Of a stretch of 64,000 bases of DNA, positions 3,610-55,971 are shown piece by piece. Both the position numbers and the translations under genes were made by a program. The notes beneath the pieces are model-generated. The model did not search any database. It was not told the DNA's origin and was given only the letters and a program-made list of their open reading frames with translations. Position 1 is the stretch's first letter. The number at the start of each line of letters is the position of its first letter. Origin of the DNA: Escherichia coli. Lineage in GTDB: Bacteria; Pseudomonadota; Gammaproteobacteria; Enterobacterales; Enterobacteriaceae. The stretch lies in the NCBI RefSeq assembly GCF_041886205.1, contig NZ_CP169029.1; one strand, 5' to 3'.

Positions 3610-4875
3610 TTAAGCTTCAGCCGCCAGCATCTCTTTCTTACGTTGGCTAATACGCTTAACCAGCATTACGGAAACCACCGCACCACTGAATGCGAAGCAG
3701 GCCATAATGCCAAACACGATTTTGTAGCCAATAATCCCCGGATTTAAATCCAGAATGTAGCCATACAGACTGAAGCAGAACATCGCCGGAGCGTAACCAA
3801 TAAAGCTACCCAACGCCATCGCCGCACCTGTTTTATTTTCAGCAATTTTTGCTTCGCCGATAGGTGCAAAAAATACGGCTCGCTGTGTAAAGACTATCGC
3901 GCCAAAGCCCAGCGTACATGCCATCCCTAAATAGACCGGCATACTTTCGTGCGGCAGCATAATCAACAGTACGAGCGCAGCGGTACTAATGATAAAGGTG
4001 TAGCATAGATATTTACTTGGCGATTTCAGGATCTTATCTGAAATCATGCCACCAATCGGTCCACCAATCATTTTCAGACAGTATTGGTTAATGATGCCGT
4101 AAGCCCCCACCAGCGCAACGGGCAATAGATAGATGTTTTTCAGGAATGGAATGAAGAATGTCAGGCCACAGTAAACCGCGTAAACGAAGAAGACGTTAAA
4201 AGCGATAAGCCAGATAGTTTTGTCTTTCAGCACCGAGGTCATACTGGTGTTTTTCGATGCTCCGTCTTCTTTTTTCACCTCAACGGACGGTGCCTCTTCT
4301 TTGTCATTCAGAACAAAGAAAATGATAATGCCTACGGCAATCACAATAAGGGAATAGAACCAGATGCCTGCTTTAAAACCCAATAAGCCACTGCCAAACC
4401 AGGTAAATACTGCCAACGCAGAAAATGCCACCACGGTATCGACAATGCCACGCCCTGTTTCGAAGAAGCCAAACAACCGACCTTGTTGTTCGCTATTGCC
4501 CAATCGACTTACCGACTTGAGCAAGACCGGCCAGTTCATCATGTCGCAAGTAACGCCAAATAGCGCCCAGACAAAGAGGATGCCCCAATACCCCGGCATT
4601 GTCGTCAAATAAACACCCAGTAATCCTGTCGCAATGAGTGAGAATGACATGGTGTATCTGCGCGGTAGTTTATCGGCAAAATAAATAGACAGAAAAAAAC
4701 CCACTGTCGTGACAAATGAGTTTACCGACATAGCATTACCAATTTGACCATTGGTCAAATGGAAATATTCCTGCATCGGGATATAAAACGCATCTTTCAG
4801 CGACGGTAATTTATAAATTGTACCGCCACACAATGTTAATAGACTAAATAACGCCCATTTCTTTTTCGTGAGCAT
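3610..4875 (-). CDS. yihN: MFS transporter, uncharacterised substrate
   Basis: 421-aa hydrophobic multi-span ORF; conserved position after yihM. Confidence 0.85.
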   Translation of the reverse strand: MLTKKKWALFSLLTLCGGTIYKLPSLKDAFYIPMQEYFHLTNGQIGNAMSVNSFVTTVGFFLSIYFADKLPRRYTMSFSLIATGLLGVYLTTMPGYWGILFVWALFGVTCDMMNWPVLLKSVSRLGNSEQQGRLFGFFETGRGIVDTVVAFSALAVFTWFGSGLLGFKAGIWFYSLIVIAVGIIIFFVLNDKEEAPSVEVKKEDGASKNTSMTSVLKDKTIWLIAFNVFFVYAVYCGLTFFIPFLKNIYLLPVALVGAYGIINQYCLKMIGGPIGGMISDKILKSPSKYLCYTFIISTAALVLLIMLPHESMPVYLGMACTLGFGAIVFTQRAVFFAPIGEAKIAENKTGAAMALGSFIGYAPAMFCFSLYGYILDLNPGIIGYKIVFGIMACFAFSGAVVSVMLVKRISQRKKEMLAAEA

Positions 4876-25567: not shown

Positions 25568-26076
25568 TACCGTTACTCGCCTTTGCCGCGTGGAGTGGTA
25601 CCGGAAAAACTACGCTTTTGAAAAAACTGATCCCGGCATTATGCGCCAGAGGGATCCGTCCAGGGCTGATTAAGCATACGCACCATGATATGGATGTTGA
25701 TAAGCCAGGCAAAGATAGCTATGAGCTGCGCAAGGCTGGCGCGGCACAAACCATCGTTGCCAGCCAGCAACGATGGGCCTTGATGACGGAAACACCAGAC
25801 GAAGAAGAGCTGGATCTACAGTTTCTCGCAAGTCGAATGGATACCTCAAAGCTGGATTTGATTCTGGTCGAAGGGTTTAAGCATGAAGAGATCGCAAAGA
25901 TTGTGCTGTTTCGCGATGGAGCCGGACATCGACCTGAAGAATTAGTGATAGACAGGCATGTTATTGCTGTAGCCAGTGATGTGCCGCTTAATCTTGATGT
26001 CGCATTACTGGATATTAATGATGTTGAGGGGCTGGCTGATTTTGTGGTGGAGTGGATGCAAAAGCAGAACGGATAA
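25549..26076 (+). CDS. mobB: molybdopterin-guanine dinucleotide biosynthesis adapter MobB
   Basis: 175-aa ORF overlapping mobA by 19 nt; P-loop SGTGKTT; alternative start MIPLL at 25564. Confidence 0.9.
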
Positions 26077-41845: not shown

Positions 41846-43158
<1,313 letters not shown>

Positions 43159-51397: not shown

Positions 51398-53659
51398 TTA
51401 CCCCCGACGCAAGTTCTGCGCCGCCTGCACCATGTTCGCCAGTGCCGCGCGGGTTTCTGGCCAGCCGCGCGTTTTCAGGCCACAGTCCGGGTTGACCCAC
51501 AGGCGCTCTGCCGGAATGCGTTTTGCCGCTTTCTTCAGCAGGGCTTTAATCCATTCCACGCTCGGTACGTTTGGCGAGTGAATGTCATAGACGCCTGGAC
51601 CGATTTCATTCGGATAATCAAACTCTTCGAACGACTCCAGCAACTCCATGTCAGAACGCGAAGTTTCGATGGTAATCACATCCGCATCCAGCGCCGCAAT
51701 GGAATCCATGATGTCGTTGAACTCGCAATAACACATGTGAGTGTGGATTTGTGTGTCATCTTTCGCCACGGCGGCGTTGATACGGAAGGCCTCTACGCCC
51801 CACTGGAGATAGGCGTCCCAGTCGCTACGACGCAGCGGTAAACCTTCGCGCAGCGCCGGTTCGTCAATCTGGATGATACCAATCCCTGCCGCTTCCAGAT
51901 CGGCCACCTCATCACGCAGCGCCAGCGCAATCTGTTTGGCGATGGTTTCACGGCTGACATCTTCACGCGGGAACGACCAGCAGAGTATGGTCACCGGCCC
52001 CGTCAGCATCCCTTTCACCGGTTTGTCGGTCAGCGATTGCGCATACTTCGCCCACTCCACGGTAATCGGTGCCGGGCGGCTAATGTCACCAATGACAATC
52101 GGTGGCTTCACGCAGCGGGAACCGTAGCTCTGTACCCAACCGTTTTGCGTAAAGACAAATCCGTCGAGGTGCTCGCCAAAGTATTCCACCATGTCATTAC
52201 GCTCGGCCTCGCCATGTACCAGCACATCCAGTCCCAAACGTTCCTGCTCAACAATGGCCTGCTTGATATGTTCCGCAATGCCCGTGCGGTAGTTGTTGGC
52301 GTCGAGATTACCCTTTTTGAAATCCAGACGCAGGGTACGAATTTCCGTGGTTTGCGGGAAAGAACCAATCGTGGTGGTCGGCCACGCTGGCAGTTTAAAA
52401 CGCGCACGCTGGGCTTCGGCACGCACTTCATAGACATTCGCACGCTGGCTGTCCTGGGCGGTGATCGCCGCCAGACGCTTTTCTACCGCCGGATTATGTA
52501 CACGAGTAGAGTGACGACGCGCCTGAATTGGGGCGCTCCACTCTGCCAGAGCTGCCGTGTCACCACTGTTCAGCGCATCGCGCAGCAGTGCCAGTTCATG
52601 GCATTTTTGTAGGGCGAAGGCAAACCAGCTTTTCACTTCTGCATCAAGACGCGTTTCCACGCTCAGGTCGATGGGGCTGTGCAGCAACGAGCAGGAAGAT
52701 GCCACCCACAAATCACGTTTGCCGACAATGTCCTTAATTTGCGCATATTTCTCGGTAAGATCGGCGCGCCAGACGTTACGACCATTGATCAGACCCGCAG
52801 ACAGCAACCAGTCAGAAGGTAGGCGCTTGTGCAGTTCAGCAACGTCATCTTTACCATGTACAAGGTCCACATGCAGCCCCTGAACAGGCAGCGCAGTAAT
52901 CGTGTCGAGGTTTGGCGTTACGCCTTCAAAATAGGTGGTCAGCAGCAGTTTCACCTGGCCCTGGAGCGCGTCGTAAGCGGGTTTGTATGCGTCCAGCCAC
53001 GCCTGCGGTAGTTCCAGTACCAGCGCGGGTTCGTCGATCTGTACCCACTCAATGCCGCGTTTTGCCAGTTCTGCCAGCACTTGCTGATAAACCGGCAGAA
53101 TGTCGTTCAGCAGGCTCAGGCGGTCAAATTGTTCACCTTTCACTTTCCCCAGCCACAGCCAGGTAACCGGCCCCAGCAGCACAGGTTTCACCTTGTGGCC
53201 CAGCGCCAGCGCCTCGTCCACTTCGTCCAGCAGCTGCGTCCAGGTCAGTTTGAACTGTTGGCCTTTAACGAACTCCGGCACCATGTAGTGATAGTTGGTG
53301 TTAAACCATTTGGTCATTTCCGCTGCCGCCGCAGGTTCGCCAGTTGGCGCACGTCCACGACCAATACGGAACAGGGTGTCGATATCTACCGAACCATCTT
53401 TGTTCTGATGACGTGGCGGAACATTACCCAGCAGCAGACTGGTGGTCAGTACATGATCATACCAGGCAAAATCGCCCACCGGCAGCAGGTCGATACCCGC
53501 TTGCTTTTGTTGATCCCAGTGACGAGCACGCAATTCACGCCCTACCGCCAGCAGTTCTTCACGCGTGGAGTTCCCCGCCCAATAACTCTCTTGCGCTTTT
53601 TTCAGCTCGCGACGCAGGCCAACGCGAGGGAAACCGAGGGTGTGATTAAGAATTGTCAT
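51398..53659 (-). CDS. metE: cobalamin-independent methionine synthase
   Basis: 753-aa ORF recognised as MetE. Confidence 0.97.
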
Positions 53660-53764
53660 TATATGCCCCTTATGGAATTTTTAGTATTTAGCCGTCCAGA
53701 TGTTTACACATCCATAATTGGCGGTTACTGTATATTCCTCAAGCGCAAATTATTCATGCCGAAG

Positions 53765-53777
53765 TGAAGGACTTTCA
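53765..53777 (+). promoter_or_regulatory. MetR-type binding motif TGAAggactTTCA in the metE-metR divergent region
   Basis: TGAA-N5-TTCA dyad immediately abutting the metR ATG. Confidence 0.5.
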
Positions 53778-54730
53778 TGATCGAAGTAAAACACCTGAAA
53801 ACGCTACAAGCGTTGCGGAACTGCGGCTCTCTCGCAGCCGCTGCGGCGACGTTGCATCAGACGCAATCCGCCCTGTCTCACCAGTTTAGCGATCTGGAAC
53901 AACGCCTTGGCTTCCGGCTATTTGTGCGTAAGAGCCAGCCGCTACGCTTTACACCGCAGGGAGAAATCCTGTTGCAACTGGCAAACCAGGTGCTGCCGCA
54001 AATCAGCCAGGCACTGCAAGCCTGCAATGAACCGCAGCAGACGCGTCTGCGCATTGCCATTGAGTGCCATAGCTGTATTCAGTGGCTGACGCCCGCGTTA
54101 GAAAATTTCCATAAGAACTGGCCGCAGGTAGAGATGGATTTTAAATCGGGCGTGACGTTTGACCCGCAGCCTGCGTTGCAACAGGGCGAGCTGGATCTGG
54201 TGATGACCTCCGATATCCTGCCGCGCAGTGGCCTGCATTATTCGCCGATGTTCGATTATGAAGTACGCCTGGTGTTAGCGCCTGACCATCCACTGGCGGC
54301 AAAAACGCGTATTACACCGGAAGATCTCGCCAGCGAGACGCTATTAATTTATCCGGTGCAGCGTAGTCGACTGGATGTCTGGCGGCATTTTCTTCAGCCG
54401 GCAGGCGTCAGCCCGTCACTGAAAAGCGTCGATAACACCTTATTGTTGATTCAGATGGTTGCCGCGCGGATGGGTATTGCCGCGCTACCGCATTGGGTAG
54501 TAGAGAGTTTTGAGCGCCAGGGTCTGGTGGTCACCAAAACCCTGGGCGAAGGCTTGTGGAGCCGACTGTACGCCGCCGTGCGCGATGGCGAGCAGCGTCA
54601 GCCGATTACAGAAGCATTTATTCGCTCAGCGCGCAATCACGCCTGCGATCATCTGCCGTTTGTGAAGAGCGCGGAGCGACCCACTTACGATGCACCCACA
54701 GTGAGGCCAGGATCACCAGCGCGCCTGTAA
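53777..54730 (+). CDS. metR: LysR-family transcriptional activator MetR
   Basis: 317-aa ORF with N-terminal HTH. Confidence 0.95.
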
Positions 54731-55517
54731 TAAACGTTGGCCAGTGCGGCTGTTGGTGCCAGATAGCCAGGTTAACCAGCAGCCCTGCCGGAACGTGCAT
54801 ATTATTCATAATGCCCAGCGTTCCGGCGTCCACCTGCGTCGCGCCGTAGTTCCACATAAAGTAGCCAATCCCGGAAGCCACCACGCCAAGAAACACCAGA
54901 ATGCCCCATTGCAGCGTGGTTTGCGGCATTTTCTGCGCATTTCCCAGCAAGAACCATGCAATTACCGCCACCAGGAACGCGCCAAGATAGAACCACGCAA
55001 AGGCGTTATGCTGCGGCATCGGGCGAGTTTCCATCAGGCGTTTGTAACCCACCATGCCGATGGCAAAAGTGATATTGGAGAGTTGCACCAGCAACAAGCC
55101 AGTCCAGAAATGGTCGGTGACCTGATCATAGCGAATAATCCCGGCACCAATCACCGCCAACAAGGCACTAAAAGCATATCCCCAGCGCAGACGGCGCTTA
55201 CTCATGATGTCATAAATCAGCGTGATGTAGAGCGGCGTCAGTACGGTGAACAACAGCAGTTCGGAGACCGTCAGGTAGAGATAGGCGCGGAAACTCAGCA
55301 TATACATCACGCCAAGCTGCATCGCGCCCACCAGCATATACAGGCCGACTGTTTTCAGGCTATTGCCACGGGTACGCAGAAACGGCAGAAAAACGAGCGC
55401 CGCCAGGCCAACTCGCACCAGCACCGCAAAATAGCTATCGACGTGCCCCGCAAGGTACTCGCCATAAAAGCTAAAGGAGAAGGCCCACAGAATCGTGGTG
55501 ATGATAAGTAGCGCCAC
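54618..55517 (-). CDS. yigM: DMT/EamA-family transporter (biotin transporter BioP/YigM)
   Basis: 299-aa ten-helix membrane ORF; 3' end overlaps the metR 3' end by 113 nt. Confidence 0.88.
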
Positions 55518-55608
55518 ACTGGAAAACTCTTTGATTAACGAGTATCCATTGTAGCGAAGTATCAGGTTGACAACTGTTTAATGTTTGCTCAATCGTGTGC
55601 GTTTTTAC

Positions 55609-55971
55609 TCATCGTCCAACGTTACCCGCTGCAACGAAAAGTAGTTGATTAATAATGGATTCACGCGCGCTCTCCACGCTCAGATTCCAGTACTTGGTGT
55701 CGAGAGCCAGTTTCATAAAAGGCGCGTGCCAGTCTTGTTCTCTTTTTTCAAAAACCACTTCAGCGACTTTATAGCCCGTCCAGCTACGATACAAATGCAA
55801 AACGTTATTCTCAAAATAGATAAACCATTTGTATTCCATCGCTGGAGGAATAAACCCCATTTCCAGATTACGCATTTGCGCTTCATCTAACGTCAAATTA
55901 AGCTCAACCCTCTGCCAGTCAACGGTAAATGCTTTGAGGTTATGCCAGCTTTGCTTCGTCGCTTTTGTCAT
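55609..55971 (-). CDS. hypothetical protein (120 aa from MTKATKQSWHNLKAF..), not recognised
   Basis: only long ORF in the 518-bp yigL-yigM spacer; Trp-rich (6 W), AT-richer than neighbours, weak SD (AGGGAA); unclear whether it is an annotated gene. Confidence 0.35.
   Translation of the reverse strand: MTKATKQSWHNLKAFTVDWQRVELNLTLDEAQMRNLEMGFIPPAMEYKWFIYFENNVLHLYRSWTGYKVAEVVFEKREQDWHAPFMKLALDTKYWNLSVESARESIINQLLFVAAGNVGR

Follow-up and report, generated by a model that had tools for sequence, protein, structure and literature searches.

Anatomy, conservation and transcription of a 113-nt convergent overlap between the metR and bioP (yigM) coding regions of Escherichia coli

Conserved convergent overlapping gene pairs were reportedly defined by Rogozin et al. 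in Trends Genet in 2002, with a threshold of more than 15 nt. The same authors are said to have found that the phase in which codon position 2 of one gene faces position 3 of the other is over-represented and is the least mutually constraining one. Bidirectional intrinsic terminators located between convergent genes have reportedly been described by Ju et al. in 2019. Long overlaps of this kind are scarce. A survey of 338 genomes retained 54 plausible convergent overlaps of more than 60 bp, most of which were conserved only among very close species (Pallejà, Harrington & Bork, 2008; PMC2478687). For the convergent genes mscL and arfA, experiments demonstrated regulation by antisense RNA and located RNase III sites within a defined stem-loop (Morra et al., 2023; PMC10070815). 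Finally, termination by head-on collision of RNA polymerases was described between convergent genes (Wang et al., bioRxiv 10.1101/2022.10.23.513370).

Here we describe the convergent overlap of metR and yigM (bioP) in a 64-kb stretch of E. coli DNA, which was analyzed as a whole and is referred to as the window. MetR is a LysR-type regulator and YigM is a biotin transporter of the EamA/DMT type with 10 TM helices and 299 aa; both functions are established (PMC5120140, PMC4049904). The pair shows every testable feature of a conserved convergent overlapping gene pair: two real and conserved genes, 113 nt shared on opposite strands, conservation of the overlap and a 123:132 codon phase. Both the annotation and the literature already contain the overlap; Côté et al. 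(2016, mBio, PMC5120140) remarked on it, without analysis of its conservation, its codon-level constraints or its transcription. What we add are details of modest interest, namely the codon reciprocity (ATA, GTG and ATT) and two independent resolutions of the overlap.

Anatomy of the metR-bioP overlap

A preliminary description of the window had reported a 113-nt 3'-3' overlap of the two coding regions. The ORF list, the raw sequence, the RefSeq/PGAP limits in a strain that is 100% identical to the window and the MG1655 annotation (NC_000913.3; bioP 4011076..4011975, metR 4011863..4012816) all agree on this length (Table 1). Both TAA stops match the reference annotation and are conserved, the yigM stop reading tta on the plus strand in the six-frame ORF list as well as in the raw sequence. 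The same description had noted that the overlap is far longer than the others nearby, and this was borne out, since no second long overlap exists in the window. Besides metR/yigM, just one convergent pair overlaps, rfaH (+) and tatD (-), which share 4 nt at 42376-42379, and the longest co-directional one is the 19-nt overlap of mobA and mobB at 25638-25656 (RefSeq annotation of the window-identical strain).

Table 1. Coordinates of the features discussed, as positions in the window
Feature	Position	Strand	Remarks
metR CDS	53777..54730	+	317 aa, LysR-type regulator; stop TAA 54728-54730; ORF list, RefSeq, MG1655
yigM/bioP CDS	54618..55517	-	299 aa; GTG start 55515-55517; stop TAA 54618-54620
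metR/yigM convergent CDS overlap	54618..54730	both	113 nt; ORF list and sequence
Overlap part A	54621..54664		MetR core aa 282-296 (last effector-domain helix) sets the sequence
Hinge	54665..54676		MetR codons 297-300 (KSAE) against YigM codons 282-285 (PRSS)
Overlap part B	54677..54730		YigM core aa 263-281 (end of last TM helix) sets the sequence
YigM V268-I269 codons	54711..54716	-	choice among synonyms here keeps the metR frame open or closes it
Hexamer TTTATT	54617..54622		MetR F281-I282; opposite: last two bases of YigM E299 (GAA), TAA, next base
MetR V296-K297 codons	54662..54667	+	GTT or GTC before AAR would stop yigM, giving a 284-aa YigM
Rho-dependent termination region, approximate centre	54889	-	PMC7815308 coordinate mapped from MG1655; resolution +/-800 nt

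Both proteins are well represented in the databases, with thousands of homologues each and modal lengths of 317 and 299 aa. The NCBIfam equivalog model NF011950 matches MetR over residues 1-317, while the Pfam domains HTH_1 and LysR_substrate cover residues 5-63 and 86-288. In YigM, the TIGR00950 match spans residues 11-273 and Pfam EamA reaches residue 275. The metR/yigM region was found in 5423 of 5426 complete E. coli genomes. In E. coli NIPH17_0020 (NZ_AP024560.1, 976-2524), metR and bioP are both annotated as C-terminally incomplete pseudogenes, with the overlap region deleted or exchanged for other sequence; the match extends over only 61% of the query (87.5% identity). This strain may represent a natural double knock-out that arose from one event at the shared segment.

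Two further ORFs were noticed next to the pair. A 255-aa ORF at 54744-55511 (+) runs antisense to nearly all of yigM, with codon position 2 facing position 2; its length probably reflects chance, yigM being a G+C-rich gene for a membrane protein. Between bioP and yigL, at 55609-55971 (-), lies a gene for a 120-aa hypothetical protein (WP_000158817.1) which gave no Pfam match. MG1655 lacks this gene and has a gap of merely 75 nt in the bioP-yigL interval. Of 5426 complete E. coli genomes, only 8 cover at least 80% of the surrounding 501-nt segment, which looks like a rare small insertion.

Frame arithmetic and nucleotide diversity both place the two genes in the '123:132' phase, with metR position 1 facing yigM position 1, metR position 2 facing yigM position 3 and metR position 3 facing yigM position 2. 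We calculated the diversity at each codon position from 71 sequences that were mutually less than 95% identical. In non-overlapping metR, diversity at positions 1/2/3 was 0.115/0.048/0.438, and the first part of the overlap (MetR 281-300) retained this metR-frame pattern with 0.105/0.079/0.365. In the second part (MetR 301-317) the values were 0.145/0.425/0.119, which is the pattern of non-overlapping yigM in the same frame numbering (0.185/0.474/0.087), a consequence of yigM position 3 lying opposite metR position 2. The governing frame changes at the hinge, which is variable in both frames, as seen from per-site diversity and sliding windows.

The frame switch at MetR codons 297-300 coincides with the ends of the two folds. 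LysR_substrate ends at residue 288, the solved effector domain of Neisseria meningitidis MetR (PDB 4ab5) aligns to MetR residue 296, and EamA and TIGR00950 end at YigM residues 275 and 273. These boundaries were taken from Pfam, NCBIfam and PDB domain ends rather than from AlphaFold2 models, which were built on shallow alignments and reached mean pLDDT values of 44.7 (MetR) and 45.7 (YigM), too poor to judge disorder in the tails. The MetR core ends at about residue 296 (~54664) and the YigM core at about residue 281 (~54675), some 10 nt apart. Hence the conserved cores adjoin without overlapping, and what overlaps is a tail of 18-21 aa of each gene with the last structural element of its partner. 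The YigM tail (~aa 286-299) is the antisense reading of part A, and the MetR tail (aa 301-317) together with the metR stop is the antisense reading of part B. Each stop codon is likewise made by codons of the partner. The yigM TAA spans the invariant MetR residues F281-I282 (TTT|A), where TTC would give TGA, and the metR TAA spans YigM I263-T264 (ATT|A). Because position 2 of each tail lies opposite position 3 of the partner, tail sequence for the most part follows the synonymous drift of the partner.

The explanation we favour, with a probability of roughly 70%, is an ancient tail-to-tail overlap of two unrelated functional genes that is a product of compaction and carries no dedicated regulatory device. 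The cores end about 10 nt apart with no spacer between the genes, and each frame runs on into the antisense of its partner's last structural element and takes its stop from the partner's codons. Selection holds the ORF ends while most of the tail sequence drifts. Each mRNA would enter the other gene and probably be ended diffusely, through the action of Rho, for which there is published evidence on the yigM strand, and perhaps also through colliding polymerases. In this view the overlap is a frozen product of genome compaction. The codon-position pattern is accounted for by two abutting genes with run-on tails, and a regulatory function is not needed to explain it.

Conservation and codon choice at the two ORF ends

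We scanned one genome per species, which gave 80 Enterobacterales loci. In 76 of them the unit bounded by the metR and yigM starts spans 1741 bp without gaps and has the stops at equal relative positions; it occurs in Enterobacteriaceae, Yersiniaceae, Pectobacteriaceae and Hafnia. The overlap measures 95-116 nt in 74 of the 80 species loci. Its length is 113 nt in most Enterobacteriaceae and in Yersinia, 116 nt at loci with a 318-aa MetR and 95-98 nt mainly where MetR has 311-312 aa (Rahnella, Hafnia, Dickeya, Pectobacterium, Brenneria and Samsonia); Pectobacterium fontis, with a YigM of 284 aa, has an overlap of 50 nt. The 311-312-aa MetR is fixed in Pectobacteriaceae, Rahnella and Hafnia, and a YigM of 284-285 aa occurs sporadically, in a Kluyvera, a Citrobacter and some Salmonella. 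As shorter natural forms of both proteins exist, the constraint on length is real but not absolute.

Loci with a different arrangement were found in a few lineages. In Serratia and Erwiniaceae the two genes are convergent and adjacent with gaps of 5-32 nt and no CDS overlap, in Pantoea they are separated by a DUF1456 gene, and the yigM of S. rubidaea does not lie next to metR. YigM-like proteins at about 51% identity are encoded elsewhere, away from metR; homologues at 51% identity or less have about 270-300 aa and align only to about residue 270-290. Since the frame and the stops are common to Enterobacteriaceae, Pectobacteriaceae and Yersiniaceae, the parsimonious reading is that the overlap was ancestral and was secondarily resolved in Serratia and Erwiniaceae. 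In Serratia sp. PL17, the 32-nt spacer (3952-3984) holds a hairpin-like GGGCTTCC...GGAGCCC followed by a T-rich stretch, and the MetR tail (RPGAGVTSVKPLASQP) is still like the Yersinia-type tail. Tail and spacer together suggest that the overlap was resolved there via duplication of the shared segment.

We also determined how readily the frames would stay open by chance. When the partner's synonymous codons were resampled in E. coli, the YigM tail remained open with a chance of 0.67 and the MetR tail, up to codon 317, with a chance of 0.61. Once the genes abut, the run-on in E. coli alone is therefore close to chance. What goes beyond chance is the ungapped geometry across families, together with codon signals that keep the ORF ends.

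One of these signals lies in YigM V268-I269. GTT or GTC at codon 268, or ATT or ATC at codon 269 before a codon starting with A, would create a stop at MetR codon 313 or 312. Among the 25 taxa with I269-M270, 21 use the rare ATA at I269, and the remaining four are precisely those whose MetR has 311 aa. ATA accounted for 4 of 300 codons at 12 Ile positions that served as controls in these taxa, and where the codon after I269 does not start with A, ATC, ATA and ATT were used 21, 14 and 6 times. Fisher tests gave p=1e-4 for the effect of context and p=3e-25 against the control sites, values that are optimistic, as are the other p-values for codon choice, because these tests treat related taxa as independent. 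V268 is GTG in 61 of 63 taxa vs 60% at control Val sites (p=1e-6), and the single GTT occurs together with a truncated MetR.

On the opposite side, the hexamer TTTATT was invariant in 71 of 71 taxa, with a third-position diversity of 0.00 at both codons, vs none of 245 control synonymous sites with zero diversity and a control median of 0.46. The third base of MetR I282 (ATT) fixes the last YigM residue as Glu299, and in non-overlapping lineages that keep Ile the codon is ATC in 3 of 4. F281 is encoded by TTT not only in the 71 overlapping taxa but also at the 5 loci without an overlap that were examined, so its invariance does not stem from the yigM stop alone and may have another cause. At MetR V296, GTG or GTA was present in 22 of 23 at-risk taxa, and the lone GTC belongs to Pectobacterium fontis L077 with its 284-aa YigM; the direction is as expected for stop avoidance, with no significant difference from taxa not at risk (p=0.15). 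Taken together, ATA at YigM I269, GTG at V268 and ATT at MetR I282 show that the ORF ends are under selection. We regard the overlap as real, ancient and weakly maintained by selection.

Selection that keeps both ORFs open means that the tails, or the positions of the stops, are not fully neutral. A rival reading is true dual coding, in which the overlap persists since both C-terminal tails are functional peptides. The candidates would be the charged cytoplasmic tail of YigM, which might serve topology or stability, and the proline-rich tail of MetR, which might serve activity. The stop-avoiding codons, with the rare ATA and the invariant ATT that fixes E299, the lengths of 317 and 299 aa kept in most taxa and the ancestral-like MetR tail that Serratia sp. 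PL17 retains after resolution are all compatible with this idea. However, the variable sites within each tail are exactly the synonymous sites of the partner, with near-normal synonymous diversity, and the conserved tail residues are those imposed by the partner's constrained positions. Where the overlap is resolved (Serratia, Erwinia and Pantoea), MetR tails are hypervariable in sequence and in length (308-316 aa), and YigM drops its tail wholly, ending 3-8 residues past the last helix at 286-289 aa. The occurrence of the shorter natural variants described above also speaks against a need for the full tails, and we consider dual coding doubtful.

Transcription through the shared segment and consequences for gene deletions

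As there is no intergenic DNA, full-length metR and yigM mRNAs are complementary over at least 113 nt. The preliminary description had pointed out that the transcripts would be antisense over each other's 3' coding regions, and had added that this allows antisense or transcriptional interference between methionine regulation and the biotin transporter. The first statement stands. The second is unsupported by the data presented below, in which no conserved RNA structure, terminator, mapped 3' end or dsRNA-table entry links metR to bioP. It was likewise asked there whether one of the proteins terminates earlier or whether both transcripts end before the overlap, and we found evidence of neither.

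No terminator fits between the genes, so each mRNA presumably runs into the other gene. A consensus scan of 53600-55700 returned 0 terminator-like sites for intrinsic termination and one promoter-like site only, in the vicinity of the metE/metR control region. Within 300 nt 3' of either stop, the 71 taxa had neither a conserved hairpin nor a T run of more than 6, and a bidirectional intrinsic terminator (a GC-rich hairpin with A and T tracts) was found neither between nor within the 3' ends. A 9-bp inverted repeat at 54787-54795 / 54819-54827 was considered as a terminator and rejected: it derives from PAG/AGT coding motifs, has no T tract and is fully paired in just 7 of 71 taxa. Folding of the overlap RNA was unremarkable on both strands, with z-scores of -0.11 and -0.16. 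RNAalifold on 25 species gave a weak consensus structure (-13.9 kcal/mol per 200 nt; covariation term -0.73), and Rfam returned no match on the locus at E<=1.

In published data (Adams et al., 2021; PMC7815308), the yigM strand has a coarsely mapped region of Rho-dependent termination at MG1655 position 4011704 (score 5.07, p=1.3e-12), and no Term-seq 3' end is listed at 4011600-4012199 under any condition. The Rho region suggests that Rho limits antisense read-through from the yigM strand into metR. Modestly C-rich stretches are present at 54811-54970 in the metR RNA and at 54458-54617 in the yigM RNA; they are compatible with rut sites and are not evidence for them. In the ten supplementary tables of a p19 dsRNA capture study neither gene is named, although low expression could hide dsRNA (PMC7373196). 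The best reading is that transcription would end by diffuse Rho-dependent termination, possibly helped by polymerase collision.

Against this background we weighed a cis-antisense or transcriptional-interference module that would couple MetR, and thereby methionine/SAM status, to the biotin transporter through an RNase III duplex or through collision. Three steps of biotin synthesis use SAM, which would lend such a coupling a conceivable metabolic logic. The two mRNAs are necessarily complementary, convergent adjacency is kept across several families, even those without a CDS overlap, and there are precedents in mscL-arfA (PMC10070815) and in head-on collision (bioRxiv 10.1101/2022.10.23.513370). 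On the other hand, the overlap carries no conserved RNA structure and is no more conserved than its coding constraints demand. The pair is absent from the p19 tables, the region has no mapped 3' ends and Rho seems to curtail read-through on the yigM strand. In addition, Pantoea has a gene inserted between the two and S. rubidaea has lost the adjacency. Antisense cross-regulation is thus geometrically possible and unsupported, and we hold the module to be unlikely. Were a coupling to be demonstrated it would add a methionine-biotin regulatory link; no finding of ours points there.

A related idea is that the overlap is kept for a function at the level of RNA or translation, the strict stops reflecting a need for ribosomes to translate through the shared segment. 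If so, translation through the overlap could shield each mRNA from Rho or from the antisense transcript, and MetR (methionine/SAM status) and biotin uptake would be coupled via convergent transcription and translation. We judge this quite improbable. An annotation or sequencing artefact in which a frameshift or a lost stop has lengthened one ORF at its 3' end (group iii of Pallejà et al.) can practically be dismissed, for although many long annotated overlaps in prokaryotes are artefacts (PMC2478687) and distant, non-syntenic YigM homologues, and only these, are about 10-15 aa shorter, 3' ends are set by stop codons rather than by the choice of a gene caller, the stops are identical in 5423 E. 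coli genomes and more than 70 species, orthologue lengths agree across families with no indels, codon-level selection keeps both ends, and deletion of metR disrupts yigM function (PMC5120140).

The last point has a practical side. In the Keio metR deletion the 3' end of bioP is lost as well; the deletion phenocopies that of yigM and shows synthetic lethality with bioA (PMC5120140; Côté et al., 2016), a phenotype that is explained by the physical truncation of yigM. Conversely, a yigM deletion should, by the same geometry, cut MetR short from about residue 288. Neither gene can be deleted cleanly here, as removal of one damages the other.

Comparison with known convergent gene pairs

We compared metR-bioP with the described classes of convergent pairs. 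Like the pairs of Rogozin et al. and of Pallejà et al., it has a 3' overlap of more than 60 nt that is conserved in several genomes, and its tails apparently arose by reading on into the neighbour. Unlike most of the overlaps of the 2008 survey, its geometry is identical across at least three or four families. The names metR and yigM are absent from the supplementary tables of that survey (PMC2478687).

Transcription of metR-bioP must stop within the shared region, as in the convergent pairs that end at bidirectional terminators or by collision of polymerases. Unlike pairs with a bidirectional terminator, the E. coli pair lacks a spacer, a GC-rich hairpin and U/A tracts, and hairpin-like spacer sequence is found only in Serratia sp. 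PL17, where the overlap is resolved.

The resemblance to mscL-arfA (Morra et al., 2023; PMC10070815) is one of geometry and taxonomic distribution. In both cases unrelated genes lie tail to tail and the arrangement is enriched in Enterobacterales, and in mscL-arfA, too, the 3' coding regions overlap in some species, with a spacing that ranges from overlapping to proximal among families. The experimentally demonstrated antisense regulation of mscL-arfA, with its RNase III sites in a stem-loop, sets the pairs apart, as we found no such stem-loop in metR-bioP. With abutting cores, run-on tails, the least constraining phase, reciprocal synonymous constraints and two lineages in which the overlap was resolved, metR-bioP illustrates, with a clarity that is unusual for a natural case, how long convergent overlaps can persist.
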